From Minisyncoccota bacterium (GTDB lineage: Bacteria > Patescibacteriota > Minisyncoccia > Phycocordibacterales > JABMNX01), in the NCBI GenBank assembly GCA_026195275.1, contig JAPHQU010000002.1, positions 69,964 to 133,963 of the forward strand: a DNA stretch of 64,000 nt, written 5' to 3'. The translations under genes and the position numbers were made by a program. The notes below the pieces were generated by a model. The model was not told the DNA's origin, ran no database searches, and saw only the letters and a program-made list of their open reading frames with translations. Shown here piece by piece: positions 46,010 to 60,429 of the stretch; the stretch's first letter is position 1; the number at the start of each line of letters is the position of its first letter.

Positions 46010-46273
46010 GATATGTAATTAGTTAGTTAGTGACTTGTTTAACAAGCCTGATATAGATATGAAAAAAATAAAGACCCCTGATTAAAGGGTCTATATCCGT
46101 ACCTTTAATGGTATGTATATAAATAACATGAAATGTGTATAAAGTCAATAATGCGTATATAACCAAACACTTTTCTATTCTGACTAGCTCCGCGTTTTGA
46201 GCCCCATTAGAACCCATATTTTGGAACTGGATCAGTTTGAGCTTGCGTGTATTCAGAACTATTGGGATTGGTA

Positions 46274-47443
46274 TCAATTAGAGCGGGTCAGGATTGGTTG
46301 ATCAATGTCTATCGCAGGTACTATGCCGTAGCTTGAAAGAGCGCCCTGTAAGTAGTGAAAAAACTCTGGACTAGGTGGAGGAAACTTTGGGTGCTGAATT
46401 ATTTTGCCGCACACTTCTCCGTGTTCTGCTTCGTGCTCAGTTTGATAATGGTAGGAGTAGTTGGTGAAGAATACAGCGTTCAAAGGGTATTCCTCTGGTG
46501 GTAGGTCTTTCAGTTTCCGATCAACGATAGATTTTACGTCCTTGATCCATTGTTTGTCGTCCGCGGGAACATCTGGGGTCGGAGGAGTGTTTACGTCAAT
46601 GAATACTGCGAATGGCACGTCCTTCGGATTTTGTTCAAGTGCCTCCTTGAACAATCGTTTTATTACGCGAGCAGAGTACAGTTTTTCTAAAGGTTGCAAT
46701 AAGCCAGTTTCGTGGAGTACACCACTTCTTTTCTTGCTCTTTGCTTCAACGGCGAGTACGGCTTTGGTTTCTCTATGTGTAGCGATAAACTCACAGTGCT
46801 TATTCTTGCTATTTTCGTCAGTGAACTCAATATCACAATCTAGTCGTGCAAATATTGCCGCGATTGCAATCTCGTACCGTGCACCTTGATAGTGTTCGCG
46901 TGTCTTTAGGCGATCCAGTAGTGAAGGTGGCAAGTTGCGCGTATGTATCAAGCTACACACATCAAAGGCGAGAAGTAACAAACTTTTTGAGTATCCGTCT
47001 GGCTTTGCTCCCCACACTTCGTCGCTGACACGTTCCGCTACCTTTTCGTTGCGCTCAATCCATTCACCAAGCTTCTCCAGACACAAAGATATAAAGTGTC
47101 GTTCCTCTTGAGGTAGTTCTGTTTGTGCACGGAACCAGTCAAGCCCGATTGTTTCTTTGAGTATTTGGATAATGAAGCTATGGAATGTCGTGTTGGTGGG
47201 AATATCTGCATATACTTTATTCCCAAGAGCAAACACTTTTTTACCTTTGAACACGATCGGCTTTACATAGTTGATGTGTATCCCTGCTTGCTTCAGGTAC
47301 TCTTGTCTGGCTACTACTTCTCTAAAGTGTTCAATAACTTCTGGCGGAATATCATTGCTTTGGTCTTTGTTCATACAGCATCTTTTATATTTTTTTCCAC
47401 TTCTACAGGGACAAGGTTGGTTTCTTCCAGTACGAGCATTCAT
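46274..47443 (-). CDS. SEC-C motif protein with possible PD-(D/E)XK-like nuclease core
   Basis: N-terminal PCPCRSGKKYKRCC is a SEC-C metal-binding motif. Downstream, DCDIEF...LAVEAKSKK resembles the D...(D/E)xK nuclease motifs (tentative). Confidence 0.55.
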   Translation of the reverse strand: MNARTGRNQPCPCRSGKKYKRCCMNKDQSNDIPPEVIEHFREVVARQEYLKQAGIHINYVKPIVFKGKKVFALGNKVYADIPTNTTFHSFIIQILKETIGLDWFRAQTELPQEERHFISLCLEKLGEWIERNEKVAERVSDEVWGAKPDGYSKSLLLLAFDVCSLIHTRNLPPSLLDRLKTREHYQGARYEIAIAAIFARLDCDIEFTDENSKNKHCEFIATHRETKAVLAVEAKSKKRSGVLHETGLLQPLEKLYSARVIKRLFKEALEQNPKDVPFAVFIDVNTPPTPDVPADDKQWIKDVKSIVDRKLKDLPPEEYPLNAVFFTNYSYHYQTEHEAEHGEVCGKIIQHPKFPPPSPEFFHYLQGALSSYGIVPAIDIDQPILTRSN

Positions 47444-47800
47444 AAGAGTATTTTATAACTTTTGAGTACTCAGCGCTCTTTATTGGTTTCAGAGAAAGAG
47501 GTATACTTGATTTACAACTGAATATTGAGCCCGTGAGGGCTAGCACCTAACCCTGTCGCTTCGGCGCAGGTATGGTGGGTTTCATAAACGCGGGAGTACA
47601 GATTGCACTCTTGAGAGAAGGTGTGATTGATGTGCCAGAATATCTCTCCTCGTGGCTTGAAGGAGACGAGCGCACCATAACAAAAGAAAAAATGGGACTG
47701 CTGGTGCGATAAGCAACATTCCATTGCGGGCAAATGGTCGCATATGGTCGCAAAATTGACACAGAGAGCGCACCAGTAGCATTTTCGCTATACTTTAGGT

Positions 47801-48280
47801 ATGGATACCTTTTCGTTATCAAACATACGAACTGCCCGTCAAAGCCAAGCCATTCAGTTTTGGATTGATGGAGGACGTAAGAGTAAGGCGGAGGCGCTTC
47901 GTAAAGCAGGATATAGCGAGGCGGTTGTTCGGCACCCCGAGCGTGTCTTTGGAAGTCCGAGCGTTCAACAAGAACTAGAACTGCGCGGGCTCGGCAGAGA
48001 CGGGTTCGGTATTCCTAAACCAATGCCAGCGGAAATATTGGTTGAGGAGGACATACTGCCCACGTCTCCTGTCTACTCGTTCAACCCGCAGGAGATACCA
48101 ACCGAACAATTGCAAGAACTCAAAGAAAAACTGCGTGCCATTGGTTATGAGCCAACCTCACCTCGTGCGACTACTGAACCAATACGCGCAACTCCAATGA
48201 CTTTGCGCAACAATCTTGGGTGTGCTGATGTGTTGGAAGTTTCTGCGGAAAAATCGTTTCCAAATATGTCGTCTATGTGA
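47801..48280 (+). CDS. HTH protein resembling phage terminase small subunit N-terminal DNA-binding domain
   Basis: QAIQFWIDGGRKSKAEALRKAGYSE resembles the terminase_2-type HTH (AGYSE...). The remainder is Pro/Glu-rich. Confidence 0.4.
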   Translation: MDTFSLSNIRTARQSQAIQFWIDGGRKSKAEALRKAGYSEAVVRHPERVFGSPSVQQELELRGLGRDGFGIPKPMPAEILVEEDILPTSPVYSFNPQEIPTEQLQELKEKLRAIGYEPTSPRATTEPIRATPMTLRNNLGCADVLEVSAEKSFPNMSSM

Positions 48281-48344
48281 GCCATTTTTTCTAGCCGCTA
48301 GGGCTGAAATGTGGTAAAATAAAGCCAACATATGCCTCAACGCT

Positions 48345-49910
48345 ATGAAAAAAGCCACAAAATCAACCAAAAAGAAAACAGAAAGTGCTGGACGATTTGA
48401 GGCACAACTTTTCAAAGCGGCAGACAAACTCCGAAAGAACATAGACGCGGCTGAGTACAAACACGTTGTACTCGGTCTTATTTTTCTGAAGTTCATATCA
48501 GACGCATTTGATGTGCACTACCAGAAACTTGCCTCGGGTAAGGGTGAATATGAGGGTGCCAACCCAGAGGATCAAGACGAATACAAAGCAGAAAACGTAT
48601 TTTGGGTACCGCCAGAAGCGCGGTGGGCACACCTTCATTCACGCGCAAAGTTGCCGAGTATCGGTAAGGATTTGGACGCGGCAATGGAGGCGATTGAGCG
48701 AGCCAACCCGACACTCAAGGGTATCCTCCCGAAAGAGTACGCAAAACCAAACTTGGACAAGGTAGCACTCGGTGGTTTGGTAGACCTTATTGCAGACGTT
48801 GCACTCGGCGAGGAAAGCGAAAAATCAAAAGACCTTATTGGACGTGTGTATGAGTACTTTCTCGGCGAGTTCGCTTCGCTTGAAGGCAAGAAGGGCGGGC
48901 AATTCTACACTCCTAGAAGCATTGTTGAACTTATGGTGCAAATGATAGAGCCAATGACGGGACGTGTGTACGACCCTGCGTGTGGTTCGGGTGGAATGTT
49001 TGTGATGAGCGAGAAGTTTGTGCTCGCACATCGCGGGCGTTTGGAAGACATTTCTATTTACGGACAAGAGAGCAACCACACCACCTACCGCCTTTGCCGT
49101 ATGAACCTCGCGCTTCGCGGAATAGATGGCTCGCAAGTGAAATGGAATAGCGAAGGGTCATTTCTCAAAGACGCACACCCTGACCTCAAAGCGGATTACA
49201 TTTTGGCAAATCCGCCTTTCAACCAAAACGACTGGGGCTGGGACATTCTCAGAAACGACGCTCGTTGGAAGTACGGTTTGCCGCCAGAAGGCAACGCAAA
49301 CTATGCGTGGCTTCAACATATGATCCACCACCTTTCTCCAAAAGGTGTAATGGCAACGGTACTTTCAAATGGTTCGCTTTCCTCCAACCAAGGTGGCGAA
49401 GGAGAACTGCGAAAGAAACTTGTGGAGGAGGATATGGTGGACTGTATCGTTGCGCTTCCAAACCAACTTTTCTACAACACAGGCATTCCTGCTTGTTTGT
49501 GGTTTATCTCACGTAAGCGCATTGGCAACGGCGACAGGAAACGCACAGGAGAAGTGCTATTTATAGACGCGTCGCAAATGGGGGCGCTGGTAGACCGAAC
49601 GCACAGAGAGTTTACCGAGGAGGACATCAAAAAGATTGCGGGCACGTATCACGAGTGGCGACAGAAAAACAACAAGTACAAGGACATCAAGGGCTTCTGC
49701 AAATCATCATCACTCGCGGAGATACAAAAGAACGGCTACGTGCTCACGGCAGGGCGCTATGTGGGTATTGCAGATGGCGCGAAAGACAGCGAGCCGTTTG
49801 AGGAGAAAATGACGCGGCTCACCAGTACCCTCAAGGAGCAAATGGAGCAGGAGCAGACCTTGAACGAGGAAATAAAGAAGCAACTGAAAAAAGTTGGATT
49901 TGAACTATGA
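48345..49910 (+). CDS. hsdM: Type I restriction-modification system methyltransferase subunit
   Basis: N-terminal LFKAADKLRKNIDAAEYKHVVLGLIFLKFISD, motif I DPACGSGGM and motif IV NPPFN. Confidence 0.92.
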   Translation: MKKATKSTKKKTESAGRFEAQLFKAADKLRKNIDAAEYKHVVLGLIFLKFISDAFDVHYQKLASGKGEYEGANPEDQDEYKAENVFWVPPEARWAHLHSRAKLPSIGKDLDAAMEAIERANPTLKGILPKEYAKPNLDKVALGGLVDLIADVALGEESEKSKDLIGRVYEYFLGEFASLEGKKGGQFYTPRSIVELMVQMIEPMTGRVYDPACGSGGMFVMSEKFVLAHRGRLEDISIYGQESNHTTYRLCRMNLALRGIDGSQVKWNSEGSFLKDAHPDLKADYILANPPFNQNDWGWDILRNDARWKYGLPPEGNANYAWLQHMIHHLSPKGVMATVLSNGSLSSNQGGEGELRKKLVEEDMVDCIVALPNQLFYNTGIPACLWFISRKRIGNGDRKRTGEVLFIDASQMGALVDRTHREFTEEDIKKIAGTYHEWRQKNNKYKDIKGFCKSSSLAEIQKNGYVLTAGRYVGIADGAKDSEPFEEKMTRLTSTLKEQMEQEQTLNEEIKKQLKKVGFEL

Positions 49911-50938
49911 GCGAAAAAATAACAACAGAAAATGTATTTGAGGTAGATGTTCCAGCATTGGCACTGGACAGCCGCTTTGGCAGTTTGGTATTTGAAAACG
50001 CCAACAAAAAACTCGGTAAGGCGCAAGCGTTTCTGAAAGAAGTGTACGATCTTGGCTATCAAGAACTTCTCAACGAAAGTGGTATAAATCAGGTTGGAAA
50101 TCTAACCAACAAACTGACGGAGCATTTGGAATGGCTTCGCAACTTTGATATTGGTACAGTTGCAAACGCAAAGCAGGAGCACGACAACTTTGAAAGTCGT
50201 ATTGACGGCTTCTATAACGATATTTACGAGCAGATACTGATGAGAACGCTCCCGTTCCTCCGAGAGGAGCGCCGTCGCGAAAACCCTGACCAAAAACAGT
50301 TGGATGAGGAGGTAAAGAAAGCAGTACAGGTACGCACTGAGCTTGAGGATGAACTAAAAGCAATACGCGAGGAAACTCAAAAAATCCGCACTGCAAATAA
50401 ACAAGTTGGTTCCGCTAAGGGTCAGAGGGCGGCAGTACAAATGGCGGCACACTTTGATGATGAAGTAGAACGCTATGCAACTCTCTCAAAGTATTGGCTT
50501 TGGGGCGTTGTAGGCGGATATGTCGCTATTGTTGCAGTTCTTGTTTGGCTCGGGTTTGTTACCGCCTCATATGTACATCAAATCGTCTCTTTGCCCGACA
50601 CCGTGGACACGAGTGGTATCTGGAGCGCTGTGATCTCAAAACTCGTTATCTTGGCGGCGCTATGGTATGGCTTATCGTTCGTTATCAAAAACTACAACGT
50701 GAACTCTCATTTGGCGGCAGTAAACCGACACCGCGCCGCAGTGGCACGAACTCTGGAGGACTTCATAGCGGTAGAACAACAGCAGGAAAATCCGCGCTTG
50801 TCGGAAGTGCTACAGCACGCTTCCGAAGCAATGTTCAAGAATGTGCCGATTGGTTTCGTCTCTAAGACAGAACGCGAACAAAGCAATCCCGTGCTTCAGA
50901 TAGTGAATGACCTGATCGGGATAAAGAACAACACATAG
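49907..50938 (+). CDS. Embedded gene X1: coiled-coil N-terminal domain plus 2-TM membrane protein, function unknown
   Basis: 343 aa. The start overlaps the hsdM stop (ATGA). TM helices are WLWGVVGGYVAIVAVLVWLGFV and SAVISKLVILAALWYGLSFVI. No motif recognised. Confidence 0.6.
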   Translation: MSEKITTENVFEVDVPALALDSRFGSLVFENANKKLGKAQAFLKEVYDLGYQELLNESGINQVGNLTNKLTEHLEWLRNFDIGTVANAKQEHDNFESRIDGFYNDIYEQILMRTLPFLREERRRENPDQKQLDEEVKKAVQVRTELEDELKAIREETQKIRTANKQVGSAKGQRAAVQMAAHFDDEVERYATLSKYWLWGVVGGYVAIVAVLVWLGFVTASYVHQIVSLPDTVDTSGIWSAVISKLVILAALWYGLSFVIKNYNVNSHLAAVNRHRAAVARTLEDFIAVEQQQENPRLSEVLQHASEAMFKNVPIGFVSKTEREQSNPVLQIVNDLIGIKNNT

Positions 50939-50941
50939 TAT

Positions 50942-51535
50942 ATGGAAATCGTTTATATTCTCACCAACCAAGCAATGCCCGACTACGTGAAGGTTGGGCG
51001 CACCAAAGACCTCCAGCAAAGGTTGAAAAGTTTGTATCGCACACCCGTGCCACTTCCTTTTGAGGTGTTCTATGCGTGCACTGTTGAGAACTCTATGGAA
51101 GTAGAGGCGTGGCTGTTTGAGATTTTTGACGATAGGCGGGTGAGCAAAGAGCGAGAGTTTTTTGAGATAGCGCCAGAGCGCGTTGCCGCGGCATTGCGTG
51201 CACGAGCGGTGCAGGAGGTAACCCCGAAGCAGACGTACACAGAGAACAAAGAGGACGAGGTGGCACTGGAAAAGGCACGCTCAAAACGCGACAAGTTCAA
51301 CTTCGCAATGGTGGGTATTCCTGCTGGTGCTGAACTTACCTTCAGTAGAGACGAGAATATAAGGGCGCGGGTAGTAGACAACCACAACATTGAATACAAC
51401 GGCAAGGTAACGAGTTTGTCTACCTCGGCACAGGAAATACTTGGCTACAACTATGGAGTGGCGGGCACGTTGTATTGGTCGTATGAAGGCGAAACTCTCC
51501 ACGCGCGGCGCGTGCGAATGGAGGAAGGAGAATGA
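50942..51535 (+). CDS. Embedded gene X2: T5orf172 (GIY-YIG-like) + DUF4357-like domain protein
   Basis: N-terminus IVYILTNQAMPDYVKVGRT...REFFE is T5orf172-like. The C-terminal part KFNFAMVGIPAGAELTF...SLSTSAQEILGY...WSYEG is DUF4357-like. This family is commonly found inside type I R-M loci. Confidence 0.65.
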   Translation: MEIVYILTNQAMPDYVKVGRTKDLQQRLKSLYRTPVPLPFEVFYACTVENSMEVEAWLFEIFDDRRVSKEREFFEIAPERVAAALRARAVQEVTPKQTYTENKEDEVALEKARSKRDKFNFAMVGIPAGAELTFSRDENIRARVVDNHNIEYNGKVTSLSTSAQEILGYNYGVAGTLYWSYEGETLHARRVRMEEGE

Positions 51536-52797
51536 ATATGAGCACGACGACACAATGGAAAAAAGGATTTTTATACGAGATCGCGACGGTAGTCGGGGGC
51601 TATGCATTCCGAGGTGAGGATTTTGGAAGTGAAGGAACTGCCGTCATAAAAATAAAAGACATTCAGCCGCCGTATGTTGATATTCAAAATGCCGAAAGGA
51701 TAGATCAACAGAAGTACAATCAACAAAAGATTGAGAAGTTCAAACTTTCAAAGGGAGATTGTTTAGTCGCTATGACTGGAGCGACGATAGGAAAGGTTGG
51801 AAAGATTTCGTATGACGAGGTTTCTTATCTGAACCAACGAGTAGCAAAGGTGGCGGAAAAGAGAGGTGTGGCGGATAAGAACTTTGTTTACTACGCGGTT
51901 TTAGGTAGTGATTTCCAGCGATACGTGAACACAACCTCATCTGGTAGCAGTGCTCAGCAAAACATTAGCGCCGATGATATAGGGCGTTTTCCTATTGTTT
52001 ATCCCATAGACATAAAAGATCAATGTACAATCGCGCAAGTTCTCATCAGTTTAGACAAAAAGATTGAGTTGCTACGGAAGCAAAACGAGACGCTGGAGGA
52101 AATGGCGAGGGCGATTTTCAACGCGTGGTTTGTGGAGTTCAACTTTCCAGATAAGGACGGTAAGCCATACAAAGCGTCTGGCGGGAAAATGGTAGACAGT
52201 GAATTTGGCGAAATCCCAGAGGAATGGCGCGTCGGTACTCTTGCCGAACTTATAGATCAGTTGAGTGAACGCATTGGCTCTGATGAGCAGTCAAAGTACA
52301 CGGTTATGTCTGCAGTAAACACAGGGCAACTCGTGCCTTCAAGTGAGTATTTTACTAAACAGGTTTTTAGTAAGAGCATTTCAAAATACATCAAAATCCA
52401 CCAAGGAGATTTTGCATACAATCCAGCACGTATCAACATCGGTTCTATTGGGAGATTGCGAGAACTTATCTTGGGAGCTGTTAGTCCTGTATATGTCGCG
52501 TTTCGCGCAAAAGAAGGCGCGGGAGCGTTTGTTGATTTCTTGATCCAGACGGCAAAAATGAAAAAACATATTGAACTCTATGCTAACGGGTCAGTGCGGC
52601 AAACACTTGACTATGACGGTTTCGGAGCATTTTCTTTTGCAGTTCCAACGGAAAATATCCTGAAAGAGTTTGACAAGATCACTGCTTCTCTACGGAATAT
52701 TTTTGAACGGAAGGAAGCCCAGATTGAGAACCTGCGAACTGTTCGGGATTTACTACTGCCAAAACTAATGAGCGGAGAGGTTCGCGTAAATACGTAA
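51532..52797 (+). CDS. hsdS: Type I restriction-modification system specificity subunit
   Basis: Two target-recognition halves separated by the conserved central helix region LLRKQNETLEEMARAIFNAWFVEF. C-terminal LRTVRDLLLPKLMSGEV. Start overlaps the X2 stop. Confidence 0.85.
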   Translation: MNMSTTTQWKKGFLYEIATVVGGYAFRGEDFGSEGTAVIKIKDIQPPYVDIQNAERIDQQKYNQQKIEKFKLSKGDCLVAMTGATIGKVGKISYDEVSYLNQRVAKVAEKRGVADKNFVYYAVLGSDFQRYVNTTSSGSSAQQNISADDIGRFPIVYPIDIKDQCTIAQVLISLDKKIELLRKQNETLEEMARAIFNAWFVEFNFPDKDGKPYKASGGKMVDSEFGEIPEEWRVGTLAELIDQLSERIGSDEQSKYTVMSAVNTGQLVPSSEYFTKQVFSKSISKYIKIHQGDFAYNPARINIGSIGRLRELILGAVSPVYVAFRAKEGAGAFVDFLIQTAKMKKHIELYANGSVRQTLDYDGFGAFSFAVPTENILKEFDKITASLRNIFERKEAQIENLRTVRDLLLPKLMSGEVRVNT

Positions 52798-52801
52798 ACA
52801 T

Positions 52802-53458
52802 ATGGAAAGCACAGTAGAAAAAATCACCGATACAGTATCCGACGCATTCAGAAGCATAGCCGAGATTGCAAAGGAGCGAATATTTACGCCAATGTATTTC
52901 TACTTCCTTGGTGCGTGGCTCATTACCAACTGGAAGTTTGTGTACACATTCTTTTTTGCTGATGAAAAACTGATACTTGAACACACTGGAATGTTGAAAG
53001 TTGAGTATCTGACGCAAATCTATCCTCACGACTGGACGGCGGTATTTCCGTTATTTGTTATACCGTTCGGGCTCGCGTATTTGGCAGTTTGGTGGTTCTC
53101 TGTCGTTTCCGAGAGGTTTTATAAAAAACACGAGGAGCACCAAATGAATAAGCGTGTGATCAAGCGCGAAGTTGAGTACCGCGAGAAGGTGGCATATTTC
53201 AAATCAGAGCGTGAAGTACGCGAGCAACAACTTGATCCGCAGGTGAAGTATGAGGAGAACAGGGACTACAACGAGCAAATAGACGAGAGCAATCCAGAGG
53301 TGGAAGTGAATGGAGTGCCTATGTTGCCAAGCGAAGTTTTGTATAAAACGGATTACCTTGCATATAAAACAGGGCTAGACGAATATACAGCAGAACTCGC
53401 ACAGAAGGGCGAGGATTTGGCAGTTCAGGCAGAAATAGACCGCCGACGCGGAAAATGA
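52802..53458 (+). CDS. Embedded gene X3: 2-TM membrane protein with charged C-terminal tail, function unknown
   Basis: 218 aa. Helices are [22 protein letters not shown] and [22 protein letters not shown]. Its stop overlaps the hsdR start (ATGA). Confidence 0.55.
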
Positions 53459-56400
53459 TTATGACCAAAATATACGAAAGCGATATAGAACTGTGGGTGA
53501 TAGAACTGCTGGAAAAGCAGGGTTATGTGTATCTATCTCCAGAGGAACAAGAAGCAGAGCGCCCCGATATGCGCGAGGTTGTTTTGCGTACGCGACTTAC
53601 AGAAGCGGTGGCGCGGCTCAACCCGCTAGTACCAAAGGACGCACAAGACGACGCGATACGGCAAGTAATAAACCTCTCGCCACAGCACTTGGTGGAAAGC
53701 AACGAGACATTCCAGAAAATGCTCACTGACGGAGTGAGCGTGGAGGTGGCGGGCGATCAGGGTGGCACACGTGGCGAAGTGGTGCACCTGATTGATTTTG
53801 CTAACCCAGAAAATAACGACTTGGTGGTAACCAATCAGTTCATTATTCCGTACGACCACACGAGTAAACGTCCAGACGTGGTGCTTTTAGTAAATGGACT
53901 ACCGCTTGCCGTGATTGAACTCAAAAATCCTGCGGACGAAAACGCGACGGTACACAAGGCGTTCACGCAACTCCAAAACTACAAAGACGCAGTGCCACAA
54001 CTCTTTACCTACAACGGCATTCTTGTTGCCTCTGACGGTTTGGATACTCGTGTCGGTTCACTCACGGCTCCGTGGGAGCGCTTTGTGGTGTGGCGTGCAC
54101 CTGAGGATAAAAAACACGGCGAGGATAAACGCCCGCAAATGGAAACGGTAGTTGAGGAAATGTTGAAACCCGCAGTGCTTCTGGATTTGATACGCAACTT
54201 CACGGTGTTTGAAAAGGTGAAAAAAGAGAACAAAGAGACAGGGCTGGTAGTGGTGGAAAGTGTAAAAAAGGTTGCGGCATACCACCAGTACTATGTGGTC
54301 AACAAGGCGATCAACTCAACGCTTCGCGCTACCGAGGAGCACGGAGAGCGCAAAATTGGTGTGGTGTGGCACACACAGGGATCGGGCAAATCCCTCTCTA
54401 TGGTGTTTTATACAGGCAAAGCGGTGCTTGCACTCAATAACCCGACGGTAGTGGTGATTACCGACCGCAACGATTTGGACGACCAGTTGTTTGATACATT
54501 TGCGGCGAGCCGCGGGCTTCTGCGCCAAGAGCCAGTACAGGCAGAAAGCCGAGCACATTTGAAAGAACTCTTACAGACCGCAGGAGGCGGGATTGTGTTT
54601 ACGACCATCCAAAAGTTTTTCCCCGAGGACGGCGGCGAGACATACGATCAACTGACCGACCGCAAAAACGTAGTGGTGATTGCAGACGAAGCGCACCGTA
54701 GCCAATACGGATTTGCCGCTCGTACGGTATTCAAAGATGACGAAGCGATTACCCGCTATGGCAACGCAAAATATTTGCGCGATGCACTTCCGAATGCCTC
54801 ATTCATTGGTTTTACGGGCACACCGATTGAAAGCACTGATCGCTCCACCCCTGCCGTGTTTGGTGAATACCTTGATGTGTACGACATTCAAGACGCAGTG
54901 CGCGATGGCGCTACTGTTCCTATCTACTACGAGAGCAGATTGGCAAAAGTACACCTGCCAGAGGAAAAAAGTGAGGAAATAGACGCAGACGTGGAAGCAG
55001 TGGCAGAAGGTTTGGAGTTCACCGCAAAGGAAAAAGCGAAGGCGAAGTGGGCGCAATTGGAAGCAATCATTGGCAACCAAGAACGCCTGAAAGAGATAGC
55101 GAAGGACTTGGTGGTGCACTTTGAAGCGCGACAGGAAGTGAACGTGGGCAAGGCAATGATTGTGGCGATGAGTAGACGCATTGCCGTTGATTTGTACCGC
55201 GAGATAGTGGCACTTCGCCCAGAGTGGTACAACGACGATTTGGAGAAAGGTGCAATCAAAGTTGTAATGACGGCGAACTCGTCAGACCCGAAGGAGTTTC
55301 AGCCACACCACACGAATAAAGAAGCACGACGACGACTTGCCGATCGTTTCAAAGACGCGGGAAGCGACCTCAAACTAGTTGTGGTGTGCGATATGTGGCT
55401 CACAGGATTTGATGTGCCGTCTTTGCACACAATGTACATAGACAAACTTATGCGCGGACACAATCTTATGCAGGCGATTGCCCGCGTGAACCGCGTCTTT
55501 AGAGATAAGGAAGGAGGTCTTATCGTGGACTACATTGGTTTTGCCGCCGACCTCCAGAAAGCACTCGCCGTGTATACGGGAAGCGGTGGTACAGGAAGCC
55601 CGACCGTAACTCAAGACAAGGCGGTGGAGATAATGCTGGAGAAATACGAAGTCGTGAAGCAAATGTTCCACGGCTTTGACTACCACCGTTACTTCACGCT
55701 TGATACTCGTGGCAAACTCGGGCTTATTTTGGAAGCGCAGGAGCACGTCTTGGCGCAAGACAATAAAGTACCCGCAGAGGGCGAAAAGAAGTCCCAGAGC
55801 CCTTCAGAGCGCTTTATACACGAGGTTACAGCCCTCTCTAAGGTCTTTGCCATTGCGGTGCCACACGAGGAGGCACTGGCGATACGCGACGAAGTGGCAT
55901 TTTTCCAAACAATCAAAGCCCGCTTGATCAAGTTTGACCCAGACCCGACCAACTGCCGCGAGGATATAGAGACGGCAATACGACAGATTGTAGATAAGGC
56001 AGTGGTTACCGAAGGCGTAGTGGATATTTTCCAAGTCGCGGGTATTCCAAAGCCAGACATTTCCGTGCTCTCGGACGAGTTCCTTGCAGAGGTGCAGGGA
56101 ATGAAGCACCAGAATGTCGCAATGGAACTTATGAAGCGGCTCCTCAATGACGAAATACGCTCACGATTGCGAAAGAACCTCATACAAGGAAAGAAGTTCT
56201 CAGAAATGCTCGGTAAGACCATCACGAAGTATCAGAACAACCTCCTCACTGCCGCCGAAGTCATACAAGAACTCATTGCGCTTGCGAAAGAATTACGCGG
56301 TGCAGATGAACGCGGTGAGGATTTGGGACTTTCTGACGATGAACTCTCGTTCTATGACGCATTGGCAAACAACGAAAGTGCTCGTGATGTAATGAACGAC

Positions 56401-56613
56401 GAGACACTTCGCGATCTTGCGCGAGTGCTGGTAGACAGGGTACGGGCGAGTGCCACGGTGGACTGGACGATACGCGAGAACGTAAAAGCAAAGTTGCGCG
56501 TCTTGGTAAAACGTACGCTCGCCAAGTACGGCTATCCACCAGACAAGCAGGCAATCGCTACGGAAACCGTGCTCAAACAGGCGGAACTTTTCGCTGATGA
56601 TTGGGCGAAATAA
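53455..56613 (+). CDS. hsdR: Type I restriction enzyme endonuclease/helicase subunit
   Basis: N-terminal nuclease domain, SF2 motifs ([16 protein letters not shown]) and a length of 1052 aa. Confidence 0.92.
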
Positions 56614-56619
56614 AGTTTT

Positions 56620-57366
56620 ATGAAAAAGAGAGAAAACAAAAAGGCGCTTCTACAAGCGCAGGAGAAAATGTATTTGTATCTGACTTCTCTTGCGTCAGAT
56701 CAGTCATTTCTCGCACGAGTAACAGAAATACGGGAAAGGTATGGAATACCCGAAGGTGGTTTTGAAAGTGATTTGAAGGACGAGTTTGAGTTTATAAACT
56801 CACTCCCCAAGGGAAACGAAGCGGATTTCCAAAAAGAAATATACGACCTTGCAGAGAGTTTCAATGCCTCTCTTGCGTGGCTCACGAATATTCGCGATTA
56901 CGTACTTTACAATGACTTCTTTTTTACGAAAGTTTCCCCTTTGGTTGAAATGGTTGATGTGCTCGGTCTTACAGACGAGATAGTAGAAATGGACGTAGAT
57001 TTGTATGAGGAATACGAAGTGGACGAAAACGCAGTCGTGCGGCGGGTACTCAACAATCTGACTAACAGTTATCCGCTTGCAATTTTTGTTTCGCCTTATG
57101 CAACAGGTCGCGACATAATAGATTTTATAAAAAAGAACAAAACTAGCATTGAAACTCTCCAGAACAAACACTGTGATAGTGATGTGCGGATTGGCAAGGT
57201 GAGAAAAAGAAAAGCGAACGTACAGGAGAGGGATTTGTTCATTTGTAACAACAAACACCTTTCTGCCAAGGTGCTAATGAGTAAAGTGAACGAGAAGTTT
57301 GGTACACAACTGGACTACGATTACATAAACAAAATCATTGCCAAAAAGTGCCCGCGAGGAAAATAA
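56620..57366 (+). CDS. Embedded/trailing gene X4: hypothetical acidic protein, function unknown
   Basis: 248-aa ORF starting 7 bp after the hsdR stop. No motif recognised. Confidence 0.5.
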   Translation: MKKRENKKALLQAQEKMYLYLTSLASDQSFLARVTEIRERYGIPEGGFESDLKDEFEFINSLPKGNEADFQKEIYDLAESFNASLAWLTNIRDYVLYNDFFFTKVSPLVEMVDVLGLTDEIVEMDVDLYEEYEVDENAVVRRVLNNLTNSYPLAIFVSPYATGRDIIDFIKKNKTSIETLQNKHCDSDVRIGKVRKRKANVQERDLFICNNKHLSAKVLMSKVNEKFGTQLDYDYINKIIAKKCPRGK

Positions 57367-57919
57367 GTGGGCTCACTTGTAGTCCTATATCACAAATACA
57401 TTTCCTCCTACTCTGGCTTCTAGGTCAGAGTTTTTCTTTGACCTGAACAATCAGCTCAGACGAGGACAGAACCTTCCCTCTGCCTCGGAAAAAACAATCA
57501 AACGGGAATAGTGAGAGGTTTTCAGATCACGCGGGCGGGAGAACCGCCCCCCTAATCTGAAAATCTCCTAGGAAGGTGTTGGAGGAAAGTTGGGACATTG
57601 GAAAAGAGAGGACGAACGGCGGGCTGACCTTTTGCCCAACACTGTCCATCTCTCTTTTGCTCCGATCCTTCTCTGAACTGTACATACCCACCTCTCCCTT
57701 TTGGGTAGGGTGCCCAACTCCCTAATGTCTTTAGGGAAAGCGGGAGATATGGAAAAGATTTTATGGATATACCAGACGAAAAAATCCAGAAACTCCGAGA
57801 GATATACCGTAAAGAATACGGGGTTGAAATCTCTGACGAGGAGGCAAAAGTACTCGGCGAATATCTCGTGAACCTTTTTCGTGCTGTATACAATGTTTGA
57901 AATCCTATAGAATAAACTT

Positions 57920-59662
57920 ATGCGTACACCACCGTCAGACCTCAAATATTTCCTCTATGCTCGCAAGTCCACGGAAAGCGAGGATAGACAGGCGGCTTCC
58001 ATTGAGGATCAGGTTTCCGAAATGAAGCGTTTGGCAGAGCGGTTGGGTATTCAGATTGCGGAAGTAATCACCGAAAGCCATTCAGCAAAGAAACCGAACA
58101 ATCGTCCCCAGTTTACAAAAATGATGGAGCGTATTCACGCAGGAGAAGCCAATGCAATCTTGTGTTGGAAACTCAACCGCCTTGCCCGCAATCCCATAGA
58201 CGGAGGTTTGGTGAGTTGGTCGCTTCAACAAGGAATAATCCAGCACATTCAGACCTTCGGCGGTGGTTTCAGTCCAGACGATAATGTGCTCCTTATGCAG
58301 GTTGAGTTTGGTATGGCAAACCAGTATGTGAAGGATTTGAGCGTGGACACTAAGCGAGGTATGCGTAAGAAGGCAGAGCGTGGCTGGTATCCTGCTGGCG
58401 TGCTTCCTGCGGGCTATGAGCACCGCCCAAGCGCAAGCAACACGGGTGAGGACGAGATTGTGCCGAATGATGATTTTTCACTGGTAAAGAACCTGTGGGG
58501 TAAGTTGCTCACGGGGCGCTATACGATAATGGACATAAAACGCGAGGGAGACAGAATAGGATTGCGTAATCGCAAGGGACAGAAATATTCAAAAAATAAC
58601 TATTATGCGATGTTTGCCAATGAGTTCTACGCTGGTTGGTTTTATTGGGTGGACGAAAATGGAGTACACCAGCGCGTCCACGGCAAACACAAGGCAATGA
58701 TTAGCGAGGAGGAGTTTAGGAAAGTGCGTATTTTCCTTGGCAACCAAGGCGGCAAGAATAGATTGGTACGGTACACGTTCCCATTCAGGGGGAAAATGGT
58801 GTGTGGCGAATGTGCACGAATGATTACCGCCGAGCAAAAGATACAGGCGCGGTGTACGAACTGTCGGCACAAGTTTTCAATCAAACACACGAACGTATGC
58901 CCGCAATGCGAGACGGTGCTACAAGATATGGATAGTCCGCACATTGTGGATCGTACCTATTACATCTGCGTTGGTGCTACCAAGAAAATTTGCTCACAGC
59001 GCGGTGCCGTAGAGCAGGGCGAACTTACGAAGCAAATAGACCAAATCCTTCAGAATGTCTCTATCCCCAAGAGTTTCCACGAGTGGGCTGTGGACGCAGT
59101 GAAGCACGTAACCGAAAAGGACGCGGTTGAGGATGGAGCGACGCTAAACGTAATGCGGAACCGTGAGAGCGACCTTGAACAGCAGTTGAACGAGGTAACA
59201 GTTATGCGTGCCCGTCAGGAGATAACCCCTGCACACTTCAGCAAGACAATGGCAAGGATTGAAAAAGACCTTACCGATATTCGCGGAGAGATTGGCAAAA
59301 TGCACAAAAGCAAGATTGACTGGGGGCACATAGCGAACCAGTACCTCACCTTTGCAGAGACAGCGCAGGAGCGCTTTGAGAATGGAGACACGGCGACCAG
59401 AAAACTGATACTGGAGTGTATTAGTCCGAACCTGCTTTTGAAGGACAAAAAACTAAGCGTTGTAATGCCAAAACCACTGTTGGGTGTACGCTCTGCCTTC
59501 AATGTGCTATCCACTGACGTGCTGGGGTTAGAACCAGAAAAAGCCCTTGCGGGGCAAGGACTTTTTCAACGTATTGAACCCTCAAATACAATCGGGCTCC
59601 GCCTAGTAGACGACGTTCGAACCTATTGCCTTAGTGTACAAGTTAATCTTTTTGGAATTTAA
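57920..59662 (+). CDS. Large serine recombinase (resolvase/integrase family)
   Basis: N-terminal catalytic domain YARKSTESEDRQ...NAILCWKLNRLARN. Then a recombinase domain and a zinc-ribbon (CGECARM...CTNCRH...CPQCE), with a coiled-coil C-terminus. Length 580 aa. Confidence 0.85.
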   Translation: MRTPPSDLKYFLYARKSTESEDRQAASIEDQVSEMKRLAERLGIQIAEVITESHSAKKPNNRPQFTKMMERIHAGEANAILCWKLNRLARNPIDGGLVSWSLQQGIIQHIQTFGGGFSPDDNVLLMQVEFGMANQYVKDLSVDTKRGMRKKAERGWYPAGVLPAGYEHRPSASNTGEDEIVPNDDFSLVKNLWGKLLTGRYTIMDIKREGDRIGLRNRKGQKYSKNNYYAMFANEFYAGWFYWVDENGVHQRVHGKHKAMISEEEFRKVRIFLGNQGGKNRLVRYTFPFRGKMVCGECARMITAEQKIQARCTNCRHKFSIKHTNVCPQCETVLQDMDSPHIVDRTYYICVGATKKICSQRGAVEQGELTKQIDQILQNVSIPKSFHEWAVDAVKHVTEKDAVEDGATLNVMRNRESDLEQQLNEVTVMRARQEITPAHFSKTMARIEKDLTDIRGEIGKMHKSKIDWGHIANQYLTFAETAQERFENGDTATRKLILECISPNLLLKDKKLSVVMPKPLLGVRSAFNVLSTDVLGLEPEKALAGQGLFQRIEPSNTIGLRLVDDVRTYCLSVQVNLFGI

Positions 59663-60191
59663 GCAAATCAGTTTTAGAAAACAATCTTCTGTCAGTTGAT
59701 TCTTTTATCATTCCAAATGATGGATTTTTACTGAAACCTATATACTCCACTTTCTTAGCTTTTGCTTTGATGACATATTTTATAGCAGGAATCAAATCTG
59801 TATCAGAACTAATTACTATCGCAGTGTCATACAAATTATCAACTGCACCTACAACTAAATCTACTGATAATTTAATATCAACACCTTTTTCTCTGATGCT
59901 GTTATTGTCGTACATTATTCGACCTCTTTTAATATCAAAATTTTCGGACTCCAGTCCTGCTAAGAATTTTTGTTGCCCTTTAACCATTTTCTCTCCTTTC
60001 TCTGTATTGTTAAAATTTTTAACTATGCCGATATAGTATCTTTTTGAAACAAGATTACGTTCACCAACAAGATGTTCGACAAAAGATGAGTAATCAAACT
60101 TCATTTCTCTTTCTGGCATCTCGGATTCCTTTAGTCTTTGGTAAGTATTTCCACCATCTATATAAATAGCAACTTTTTCTTTCTTAAACAT
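59643..60191 (-). CDS. NYN-domain (LabA-like) putative RNase
   Basis: KVAIYIDGGNTYQ N-terminal NYN motif and SSDTDLIPAI. It overlaps the recombinase 3' end by 20 bp in convergent orientation. Confidence 0.7.
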   Translation of the reverse strand: MFKKEKVAIYIDGGNTYQRLKESEMPEREMKFDYSSFVEHLVGERNLVSKRYYIGIVKNFNNTEKGEKMVKGQQKFLAGLESENFDIKRGRIMYDNNSIREKGVDIKLSVDLVVGAVDNLYDTAIVISSDTDLIPAIKYVIKAKAKKVEYIGFSKNPSFGMIKESTDRRLFSKTDLLKFQKD

Positions 60192-60215
60192 ATGTTTATT
60201 TTATCATAAACAAAA

Positions 60216-60239
60216 CCACTCCTGCCGAAGCAGGAGTGG
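60216..60239 (-). terminator. Rho-independent terminator downstream of tRNA-Asn
   Basis: ccactcctgc-cgaa-gcaggagtgg, then ttttgttt on the - strand. Confidence 0.65.
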
Positions 60240-60356
60240 TGCTGTTAGTACGTATATGATTACATAATTTATAAAATAAATCAAGAGGACTGTTGATATG
60301 TTTATTTGATAAATTAGTTGAGAATAGCTCTAAAAAATAAGGTTATTTTTACTCTG

Positions 60357-60429
60357 CTCCACGGACAGGGCTCGAACCTGTGACCCAGCGATTAACAGTC
60401 GCTTGCTCTACCAACTGAGCTACCGTGGA
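60357..60429 (-). tRNA. tRNA-Asn (anticodon GTT)
   Basis: Hand-folded cloverleaf: acceptor tccacgg/ccgtgga, D-arm gctc-agttggtag-agc, anticodon stem agcga/tcgct with loop ctGTTaa, and T-arm acagg-ttcgagc-cctgt. CCA is not encoded. Confidence 0.85.

Follow-up and report, generated by a model that had tools for sequence, protein, structure and literature searches.

A membrane protein gene that follows hsdS in type I restriction-modification operons, a candidate adaptor between restriction and the membrane

Results

We analysed a 64,000-nt stretch of DNA (hereafter the window) from a Minisyncoccota bacterium (contig JAPHQU010000002.1), in particular a type I restriction-modification (R-M) operon at positions 48345-57366 in which four further genes, X1 to X4, are interleaved with hsdM, hsdS and hsdR. 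The gene of chief interest is X3, which encodes a small predicted membrane protein and lies directly 3′ of hsdS in all 24 loci in which we found it, from Patescibacteria to Flavobacteriaceae. The operon comprises seven open reading frames (ORFs), all in the same orientation on the forward strand: hsdM (48345-49910; 521 aa), encoding the type I methyltransferase subunit; X1 (49907-50938; 343 aa); X2 (50942-51535; 197 aa); hsdS (51532-52797; 421 aa), encoding the specificity subunit; X3 (52802-53458; 218 aa); hsdR (53455-56613; 1052 aa), encoding the restriction/translocase subunit; and X4 (56620-57366; 248 aa). Homolog searches assign the source to a Candidatus Pacebacteria (Patescibacteria) metagenome-assembled genome, in which locus tags are consecutive from OQJ98_01460 (X1) to 01485 (X4).

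We read the gene junctions directly. ATGA overlaps join hsdM to X1 (49907-49910), X2 to hsdS (51532-51535) and X3 to hsdR (53455-53458), and the remaining gaps are 3 nt (X1/X2), 4 nt (hsdS/X3) and 6 nt (hsdR/X4). A preliminary description of this region, made from the sequence alone, had reported a co-oriented, translationally coupled block of seven genes with a complete type I R-M system; its coordinates and its three overlaps are correct, whereas the gaps of 4-7 bp that it gave are not those measured. The six junctions are free of terminator-like sites, and a hairpin followed by a T-run at 57410-57431 (+), after the X4 stop codon, is the likely end of the transcript. Given the overlaps, the tiny gaps and the position of this sole between-gene terminator-like hairpin, all seven genes are likely carried on one transcript. 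An extended -10-like element, TGgTAAAAT, at 48312-48320 (+), 25 nt 5′ of the hsdM start, is a candidate operon promoter; a consensus promoter scan gave promoter-like sites at no more than the expected number.

The three canonical proteins match type I models over their full length in both Pfam and PADLOC. HsdM matches HsdM_N (PF12161, 1.9e-25), N6_Mtase (PF02384, 6.7e-109) and the PADLOC model MTase_I (2.4e-200). HsdS matches Methylase_S (PF01420), and its residues 7-420 align to positions 2-398 of the 403 positions of the PADLOC model Specificity_I (E 1.1e-79), with both target-recognition halves included. HsdR matches HSDR_N, SWI2_SNF2, T1R_D3-like and T1RH-like_C (PF04313, PF18766, PF22679 and PF11867), such that the nuclease region, the SWI2/SNF2 motor and the C-terminal helical domain are all present, and residues 3-1049 match the PADLOC model REase_I with 1202 bits. 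We conclude that the operon carries a complete type I R-M system that is predicted to be active, with intact ORFs under purifying selection (ratio of nonsynonymous to synonymous substitution rates, dN/dS, ~0.02).

The 24 X3 loci consist of 19 found by a context-blind peptide-pattern scan of metagenome contigs, together with the window and four others (L037, L038, L043 and L044; compared loci are given such numbers here). All are from metagenomic or draft assemblies, and some are closely related (L027-L029). In 19 of the 19 scan loci, hsdS is on the same strand as X3 and ends 4-16 bp before it (up to ~65 bp as judged by tblastn ends); for two short contigs among them, hsdS was confirmed by blastx of the upstream stub. 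The minimal arrangement is hsdM, hsdS, X3, hsdR (L030), to which L025 adds one Schlafen-like passenger. The order is hsdM, hsdS, X3, PDDEXK_4, hsdR in Mangrovimonas spongiae (Flavobacteriaceae; L037); hsdM, X1, hsdS, X3, a gene for a 195-aa membrane protein, hsdR in L043; hsdM, DUF4145, GmrSD, hsdS, X3, hsdR in L044; and hsdM, RhuM, hsdS, X3 fused to KTSC, further genes including SocA_Panacea, and hsdR in L038. X3 was not found in a scan of a plasmid collection, and viral contigs, when scanned, yielded a single weak relative.

Two of these loci call for comment. In L038, hsdR is split into two overlapping ORFs (L038:12541-15700; 368 and 696 aa), which points to a frameshift or a sequencing error. 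The M. spongiae homolog of X3 (L037:9001-9627) bears the NCBI name 'photosynthetic reaction center family protein'; this looks like an annotation artefact, as the name has no support in the Pfam and NCBIfam scans run on X3 and its homologs.

X3 has diverged together with the core subunits. Across 10-12 loci, the pairwise identity of X3 correlated with that of HsdM and with that of HsdR (r = 0.84 in each case; Mantel p = 2e-4); the correlation with HsdS, which is shuffled, was weak (r = 0.48). In a comparison of the window with L044, dN/dS was 0.033 for X3, 0.022 for hsdM and 0.023 for hsdR. X3 is therefore under strong purifying selection, comparable with that on HsdM and HsdR.

X3 consists of a membrane module (residues 28-53 and 78-101), a stalk (102-144) and a C-terminal domain of ~60 aa (146-204), which we call the head. 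The preliminary description had counted two transmembrane segments in X3. One of them, 78-101, is a classical hydrophobic helix, whereas the aromatic-rich helix 28-53 falls below the Kyte-Doolittle threshold of 1.6. The charge pattern is positive-inside, indicating an N-in/C-in topology, and places a conserved, acidic loop of 24 residues outside. In an alignment of homologs (A2), near-invariant motifs fall in helix 1 (ER.FSPMYFYF..AW.ITNWKF), the outer loop (K..YL...Y), helix 2 (IP...AY..VWWFS.LSEKFY) and the head (LPSEVLY.TDY.AYK). An AlphaFold2 (AF2) model, with a predicted local distance difference test score (pLDDT) of 75, has one continuous helix from 78 to 144, formed by helix 2 and the ~45-residue stalk, and after it a small beta-hairpin/helix domain; confidence in this model and in that of X1 is moderate. 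X3 matched nothing in Pfam, NCBIfam or PADLOC, a sequence search of the PDB returned nothing, and a comparison with BFVD gave only short matches to the head that were not significant by E-value.

X3 belongs to a larger superfamily. A HMMER scan of 1.84 billion representative sequences returned 22 at E ≤ 1e-30, 176 at E ≤ 1e-10 and 1209 at E ≤ 1e-3, the last of which may include compositional matches in its tail. Superfamily members beyond the X3 clade are ~235-260 aa long and have the membrane-plus-stalk region in common with X3, with another C-terminus. We looked up the neighbourhoods of three members, of which one lay on too short a contig and two represented informative lineages. In one lineage (L045-49) the gene lies just 5′ of a type II pair composed of N6_N4_Mtase and a MutH/Sau3AI-like enzyme, and in the other (L050) just 5′ of a type II pair composed of N6_N4_Mtase and HinfI. 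Reciprocal hidden Markov model comparisons of these type II-linked relatives with X3 gave E-values of 1e-26 to 1e-39.

Both the membrane module and the head of X3 have relatives in phages. The membrane module matches several PHROG families and is present in WCS67853.1 (L057:2492-3283) of Klebsiella phage vB_KpnP_BUCT711, a temperate Uetakevirus (hhalign 97.4%, E 1e-11); this protein of 263 aa is encoded by a lone gene in the orientation opposite to its neighbours. The head was found in ~150 phage records, including phages of E. coli, Klebsiella and Pseudomonas, among them a Jojan60 protein of 83 aa (UPU15926; hhalign 95.4%, E 1.7e-8), Kakivirus PS3 gp05 of 66 aa (YP_009819230; 93%) and Vequintavirus naam gp113 of 113 aa (QHR73619; 95%). 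These proteins fall in phrog_9294, 37123 and 9396, which are families of unknown function. The PS3 (Autographiviridae) homolog is encoded in the leftmost region of the genome, where host-type promoters precede it and the genes for primase, helicase and polymerase follow; it is thus in the early-gene region, and this is the sole clear-cut phage position. The Jojan60 and naam genes lie within runs of small hypothetical genes.

DNA comparison of the window with L044 and L040 placed homology breakpoints at the hsdM stop codon (49911), in the central conserved region of hsdS (~52050) and at the hsdR start (53460). On the basis of these breakpoints, passenger genes are exchanged together with the adjoining target-recognition half of hsdS. 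The operon has two insertion slots, one between hsdM and hsdS and one between hsdS and hsdR, the passengers of which are swapped between sister islands. In other loci these slots hold genes with known roles in defence, namely DUF4145, GmrSD, Schlafen/AlbA_2, Fic, PycTM, AAA_14/DUF4143, RhuM, SocA_Panacea and PDDEXK_4 genes. In L040, the HsdR and HsdM of which are 89% and ~86% identical to those of the window, X3 is absent and the hsdS-hsdR slot (L040:2406-4461) is filled by a Pycsar-like set of two cyclase-like genes and PycTM. A divergent X3 hidden in this slot was considered and rejected: hhalign probability was <1% for both candidate proteins, which look cyclase-like instead. The same slot in L024 (L024:10711-15697) also holds a Pycsar-like set, consisting of PycTM, then AAA_14/DUF4143 and Fic genes 3′ of X3, and in the more distant L008 it holds DUF3644. 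The slot contents of these relatives agree with the published picture of gene embedding in type I R-M loci (Payne et al. 2024, bioRxiv 10.1101/2024.01.29.577857), of which TgvAB in Vibrio cholerae VPI-2 is an example (PMC11411939). The preliminary description was right to take embedded accessory and abortive-infection genes as its frame of reference.

X2 is a passenger of a recognised type. Its N-terminal domain is GIY-YIG-like (Pfam T5orf172, PF10544, 1e-16; MUG113), and residues 2-195 match positions 6-208 of the 212 positions of the PADLOC profile PDC-S57 (PDLC05041; E 1.8e-67). PDC families were defined by their location inside type I R-M, BREX and DISARM loci, and PDC systems are predictions made through 'guilt-by-embedding' (bioRxiv 10.1101/2024.01.29.577857). 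X2 is thus assigned, by profile match, to the PADLOC candidate PDC-S57, a known kind of embedded passenger, here in the hsdM-hsdS slot. The earlier assignment of X2 to T5orf172 and to a family known from such loci holds, and the DUF4357 domain that went with it was not detected in the Pfam scan at E ≤ 0.1. No other fetched locus contains a homolog of X2. We considered a split membrane nuclease like PD-Lambda-1, composed of X1 and X2, and rejected it: none of the other X1 loci fetched contains an X2 homolog, and X1 has no matching family. The match of X2 to the nuclease domain of the PD-Lambda-1 model is weak (1.3e-5).

X1 contains a clear two-helix hydrophobic hairpin (~197-227 and 238-261), as the preliminary description had proposed. 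Conservation is strongest in the second membrane helix and the juxtamembrane motif that follows (NYNVNSHLAAVNRHRAAVARTLEDF ... ATEAMFKH.PIGF; alignment A1). The AF2 model (pLDDT 78) has an N-terminal helical domain and a helix of ~100 residues that continues as the membrane hairpin, with the C-terminus modelled poorly; X1 would accordingly be laid out as an N-terminal helical/coiled-coil cytoplasmic domain followed by the hairpin. We found 88 homolog clusters, mostly annotated as Patescibacteria, and no significant Pfam, NCBIfam or PADLOC family and no PDB relative. X1 was absent from the plasmid and viral-contig scans.

Only one of 11 species-representative X1 loci places the gene in a type I operon (Wolfebacteria; hsdM, X1, a 278-aa gene, hsdS, DUF3644, hsdR), and among ~16 distinct X1 loci, type I systems occur only in the window, L043, L040 and L008. 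Elsewhere X1 stands between a serine recombinase and 67-aa gene on one side and a TIR-like protein (weak match), an N6_N4 methyltransferase and a DEAD/ResIII helicase on the other; directly 3′ of a fused HSDR_N_2/N6_Mtase/Eco57I-like gene; 5′ of an Abi_C protein; 5′ of a NERD/DUF5655 protein and RNase H; or close to GIY-YIG, DUF4325 and DEAD helicase genes. Its R-M contexts are type I, IIG-like and III-like, usually without X3. Because of these varied defence contexts, X1 is a defence-island gene of a new membrane/coiled-coil family that is only sometimes embedded in R-M operons and is swappable in the hsdM-hsdS slot. The most economical guess is that it is a single-gene membrane effector or sensor. 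In L019, a 285-aa gene directly after X3 (L019:9964-10821) encodes a protein with one hydrophobic helix that the X1 profile matches weakly (E 2e-7), perhaps a remote X1-like protein placed in the second slot.

The preliminary description had gone further, in that it saw in X1 and X3 a membrane-protein pair coupled to HsdMSR. The survey does not support such a pair. X1 and X3 co-occur only in the window and L043, leaving 22 of the 24 X3 loci without X1; X1 is mostly found away from type I systems, and two type I loci, L040 and L008, have X1 and lack X3. We therefore reject X1-X3 as a functional pair, and its coupling to HsdMSR fails because X1, X2, X3 and X4 have four different histories. The preliminary description had named homologs confined to places outside R-M as a finding that would speak against it. 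For X3 this is clearly not the case; nor is it for X1, the homologs of which lie mostly but not solely outside type I loci; for X4 it holds in so far as the gene follows the recombinase and not R-M, with no R-M in L041 and L042 but X4 kept after hsdR in L040.

X4 has only 10 homolog clusters and evolves under purifying selection (dN/dS 0.12-0.13). It had been described as acidic and soluble; it is soluble, and with a net charge of -3 it is only mildly acidic. X4 has no significant Pfam, NCBIfam or PADLOC family, so that the earlier statement that X1, X3 and X4 belong to no recognised family stands for all three in these collections. Downstream of X4 are an unannotated 45-aa ORF (57763-57900, +) and, directly 3′ of it at one end of the island, a gene for a large serine recombinase of 580 aa (57920-59662, +; resolvase PF00239, 1.2e-18; recombinase PF07508; weak zinc-ribbon matches) that is predicted to mobilise the island. 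Upstream of the operon are a gene for a SEC-C-motif protein of 389 aa (46274-47443, -; Pfam SEC-C, 3.5e-8), on the left-hand side of the island, and up159, a 159-aa gene without a family match (47801-48280, +), immediately 5′ of the cargo site.

Sister islands have the same frame. L041 consists of the SEC-C gene (-), several small genes, up159, AbiJ_NTD4, X4, a 176-aa gene, a 45-aa gene and the serine recombinase, with no R-M genes; L042 is arranged like L041 and likewise lacks R-M. In L040 the order is hsdR, X4, a 180-aa gene, a 45-aa gene and the recombinase. Homologs of up159 lie 5′ of hsdM in L019, and 5′ of the cargo or X4 in L041 and L042, where there is no R-M. The recombinase is 88-93% identical to those of L040 and L041 (93% for L041). 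At the DNA level, two blocks of the window align with L041 at 83-88% identity, namely 46187-47578 with the SEC-C gene (83%) and 57761-59602 with the 45-aa ORF and the recombinase gene. The cargo differs between sister elements: L041 has an AbiJ-like gene and no R-M, and L040 lacks X2 and has the Pycsar-like set in place of X3. Because the SEC-C gene, up159, X4, the 45-aa ORF and the recombinase gene are kept in sister islands, including L040 and the R-M-less L041, they form the island backbone, and the R-M operon is its cargo. X4 as a component of the R-M system is ruled out, as it accompanies the recombinase and not R-M (L041 and L042). A regulatory role for X4 is plausible given the weak winged helix-turn-helix (wHTH)/Rha matches of the genes at its position in L044 and L043.

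The island contains further features of possible relevance to its mobility. The 45-aa ORF has counterparts in the corresponding position of sister islands, of 45 aa in L040 and L041 and of 39 aa in L044, and its product is a candidate directionality or regulatory factor. A repeat search identified no attachment sites and returned only short repeats at chance level. The 13-mer GAAAATGTATTTG occurs three times in the 64 kb, against 0.11 expected: at 49928-49940 (+), near the X1 start; at 56664-56676 (+), near the X4 start; and, inverted, at 57393-57405 (-), 27 nt after the X4 stop codon. The last two copies belong to an inverted repeat of 23 nt (87%) with one arm on either side of X4, beside the serine recombinase, and the terminator-like hairpin at 57410-57431 overlaps its distal arm. 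The GAAAATGTATTTG repeat could serve in recombination/inversion or in regulation. The island's right edge (59643-60429, reverse strand) has a gene for a NYN-domain protein at 59643-60191 (Pfam 2e-17), a hairpin at 60215-60240 that is strongly terminator-like, and tRNA-Asn at 60356-60429, the last of which may mark the integration neighbourhood.

Discussion

Our preferred reading, which we hold tentatively, is that X3 is a membrane adaptor that couples the restriction complex to the membrane. Its two-helix N-in/C-in module, with the conserved outer loop, would be anchored in the cytoplasmic membrane; the ~45-residue helical stalk would hold the small cytoplasmic head, and the head would bind the HsdM2S(R2) complex or its DNA substrate. 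Restriction would thereby be coupled to the membrane, the entry site of foreign DNA, and the free-standing head domains of phages would compete for the partner of X3. We favour an adaptor because an anchor-stalk-head build is typical of adaptors, because the head changes with the type of R-M system, and because free phage head domains suggest competition for a common partner. A constant anchor with a partner-specific head fits the other-headed relatives beside type II pairs.

A number of observations weigh against an adaptor. Binding of X3 to the R-M complex is what we infer, and the co-divergence of X3 with HsdM and HsdR could be due to tight linkage alone. The membrane helices and outer loop are conserved beyond what a passive anchor would need, which suggests sensing, oligomerisation or pore formation. 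Structure searches with X3 returned generic helical matches only. The association with type II pairs comes from two lineages, and a Leptospira plasmid carries a borderline relative (26% identity, E 1e-3) that no annotated R-M gene adjoins. The lone membrane-module gene of the Klebsiella phage fits an autonomous, moron-type function at the membrane. Lastly, X3 is optional: because the close sister system L040 lacks it, the enzyme does not need it.

A second explanation is modelled on PrrC. PrrC is embedded in the EcoprrI type IC R-M operon, prrA-B-C-D, and is thought to contact the R-M complex (PMC3874165, PMC3025547, PMC12707154); it is 'almost exclusively embedded' in type I R-M loci (bioRxiv 10.1101/2024.01.29.577857). 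X3 resembles it in being an extra gene within a type I operon that is almost obligately linked to such operons, yet optional for the enzyme; this near-obligate embedding applies to X3 alone (24/24) and not to X1 or X4. By analogy, X3 could be an abortive-infection effector that is kept silent on HsdMS(R), is released by a phage anti-restriction protein, oligomerises via its stalk and permeabilises the membrane, with death of the infected cell. Such an effector narrows to X3 the membrane-depolarising effector put forward in the preliminary description. We consider this somewhat unlikely, although it fits the genomic behaviour of X3 as well as an adaptor does and accounts better for the extreme conservation of the membrane helices, in which a polar Asn suggests specific helix packing. 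The head common to small phage proteins could be a sensor surface. Small membrane effectors are common in defence loci, and the PycTM effector of Pycsar systems occupies the hsdS-hsdR slot in L024 and L040. However, X3 matches no known effector (PycTM, SLATT or other PADLOC models), its conserved extracytoplasmic loop and long rigid stalk are atypical of small pore-formers, and the relatives beside simple type II pairs would have no stable complex there to mask a toxin.

The likeness to either model is limited in other ways. In PrrC, which is soluble, an ABC-type NTPase is fused to a tRNA nuclease, whereas X3, a membrane protein of 218 aa, lacks NTPase and nuclease motifs and resembles PrrC in neither sequence nor fold. 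Proteins of the PrrC/RloC type were considered for X1, X3 and X4 and rejected, as none has an NTPase or nuclease family match and each is either too short or a helical or membrane protein. With regard to Pycsar and CBASS effectors, neither X1 nor X3 matches PycTM (PF18967) or other effector models, the window operon contains no cyclase, and X3 has an outer loop, a stalk and a head.

Phage superinfection-exclusion proteins are small inner-membrane proteins that act at DNA entry, and the membrane module of X3 has a relative in a temperate phage, where it is a lone gene of opposite orientation, as well as in several PHROG families. X3 might on this basis be an autonomous first line of defence, such as a superinfection-exclusion protein or a DNA-injection blocker, that makes no contact with the R-M system and is co-transcribed and co-selected with it as a second layer against incoming DNA; its conserved outer loop and the general use of hsd slots by independent defence genes would agree. 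We regard this as improbable. An autonomous gene should occur outside R-M loci as X1 does, but X3 has the same position and orientation after hsdS in 24/24 loci and co-diverges with HsdM and HsdR across phyla; and, unlike superinfection-exclusion proteins, it is chromosomal or island-borne and strictly tied to hsdS, with essentially nothing in the plasmid and viral-contig scans beyond one weak viral relative.

Least probable is a regulator that sequesters and releases HsdR or the complex (restriction alleviation) or tunes the balance of methylation and restriction on membrane events: X3 is translationally coupled to hsdS and overlaps the hsdR start, its type II-linked relatives lie 5′ of methyltransferase and restriction genes, a position often occupied by controller genes, and the C-terminal region of these relatives ends in a conserved TEKGKYF motif that may resemble the wing of a winged helix, but neither X3 nor its relatives match a DNA-binding or regulator family and the X3 head differs from that of the type II-linked clade.

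Much of what surrounds X3 is already known: genes embedded within type I R-M operons, the PDC-S57 family and islands mobilised by serine recombinases. X2 and X1 resemble embedded PDC genes and TgvAB, X2 as PDC-S57 itself and X1 through its varied defence contexts and its exchange between sister loci, and the GmrSD, DUF4145, Fic, Schlafen and Pycsar-like genes of relatives fill the equivalent slots. X1 is a new family among the recognised embedded and defence-island passengers. At the same time, none of the 5027 PADLOC v2 models gives a meaningful match to X1, X3 or X4, and X3 differs from typical passengers, which are independent of R-M and are found outside it too, in its fixed position and its co-divergence with HsdM and HsdR. 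We found no R-M-dedicated membrane partner in the R-M literature that we searched, including large reviews, although our coverage was incomplete and this is an absence of evidence. X3 looks like a new form of the R-M-bound accessory gene exemplified by PrrC, but one that encodes a membrane protein unlike anything described. More broadly, the X3 superfamily, with its two helices, stalk and variable head, might comprise dedicated, membrane-coupling partners of more than one type of R-M system (type I via the X3 head, type II via another) and so form a fourth class of R-M subunit, with the phage heads as an anti-restriction family that competes for the binding surface of the X3 head; we think this rather doubtful.

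The modularity of the operon matters for annotation, since tight spacing in the 'operons' of defence islands does not imply a common function. X1 provides a new defence-island marker for Patescibacteria, the immunity of which is poorly known. The homology of the X3 head to ~150 phage proteins makes the latter a candidate family of counter-defence, or at least host-interaction, proteins. A membrane protein locked to hsdS would offer a concrete way to ask whether restriction is organised at the membrane, the point of entry of foreign DNA, and by what means, and X3 could also be relevant to the sparing of unmodified host DNA by type I enzymes.

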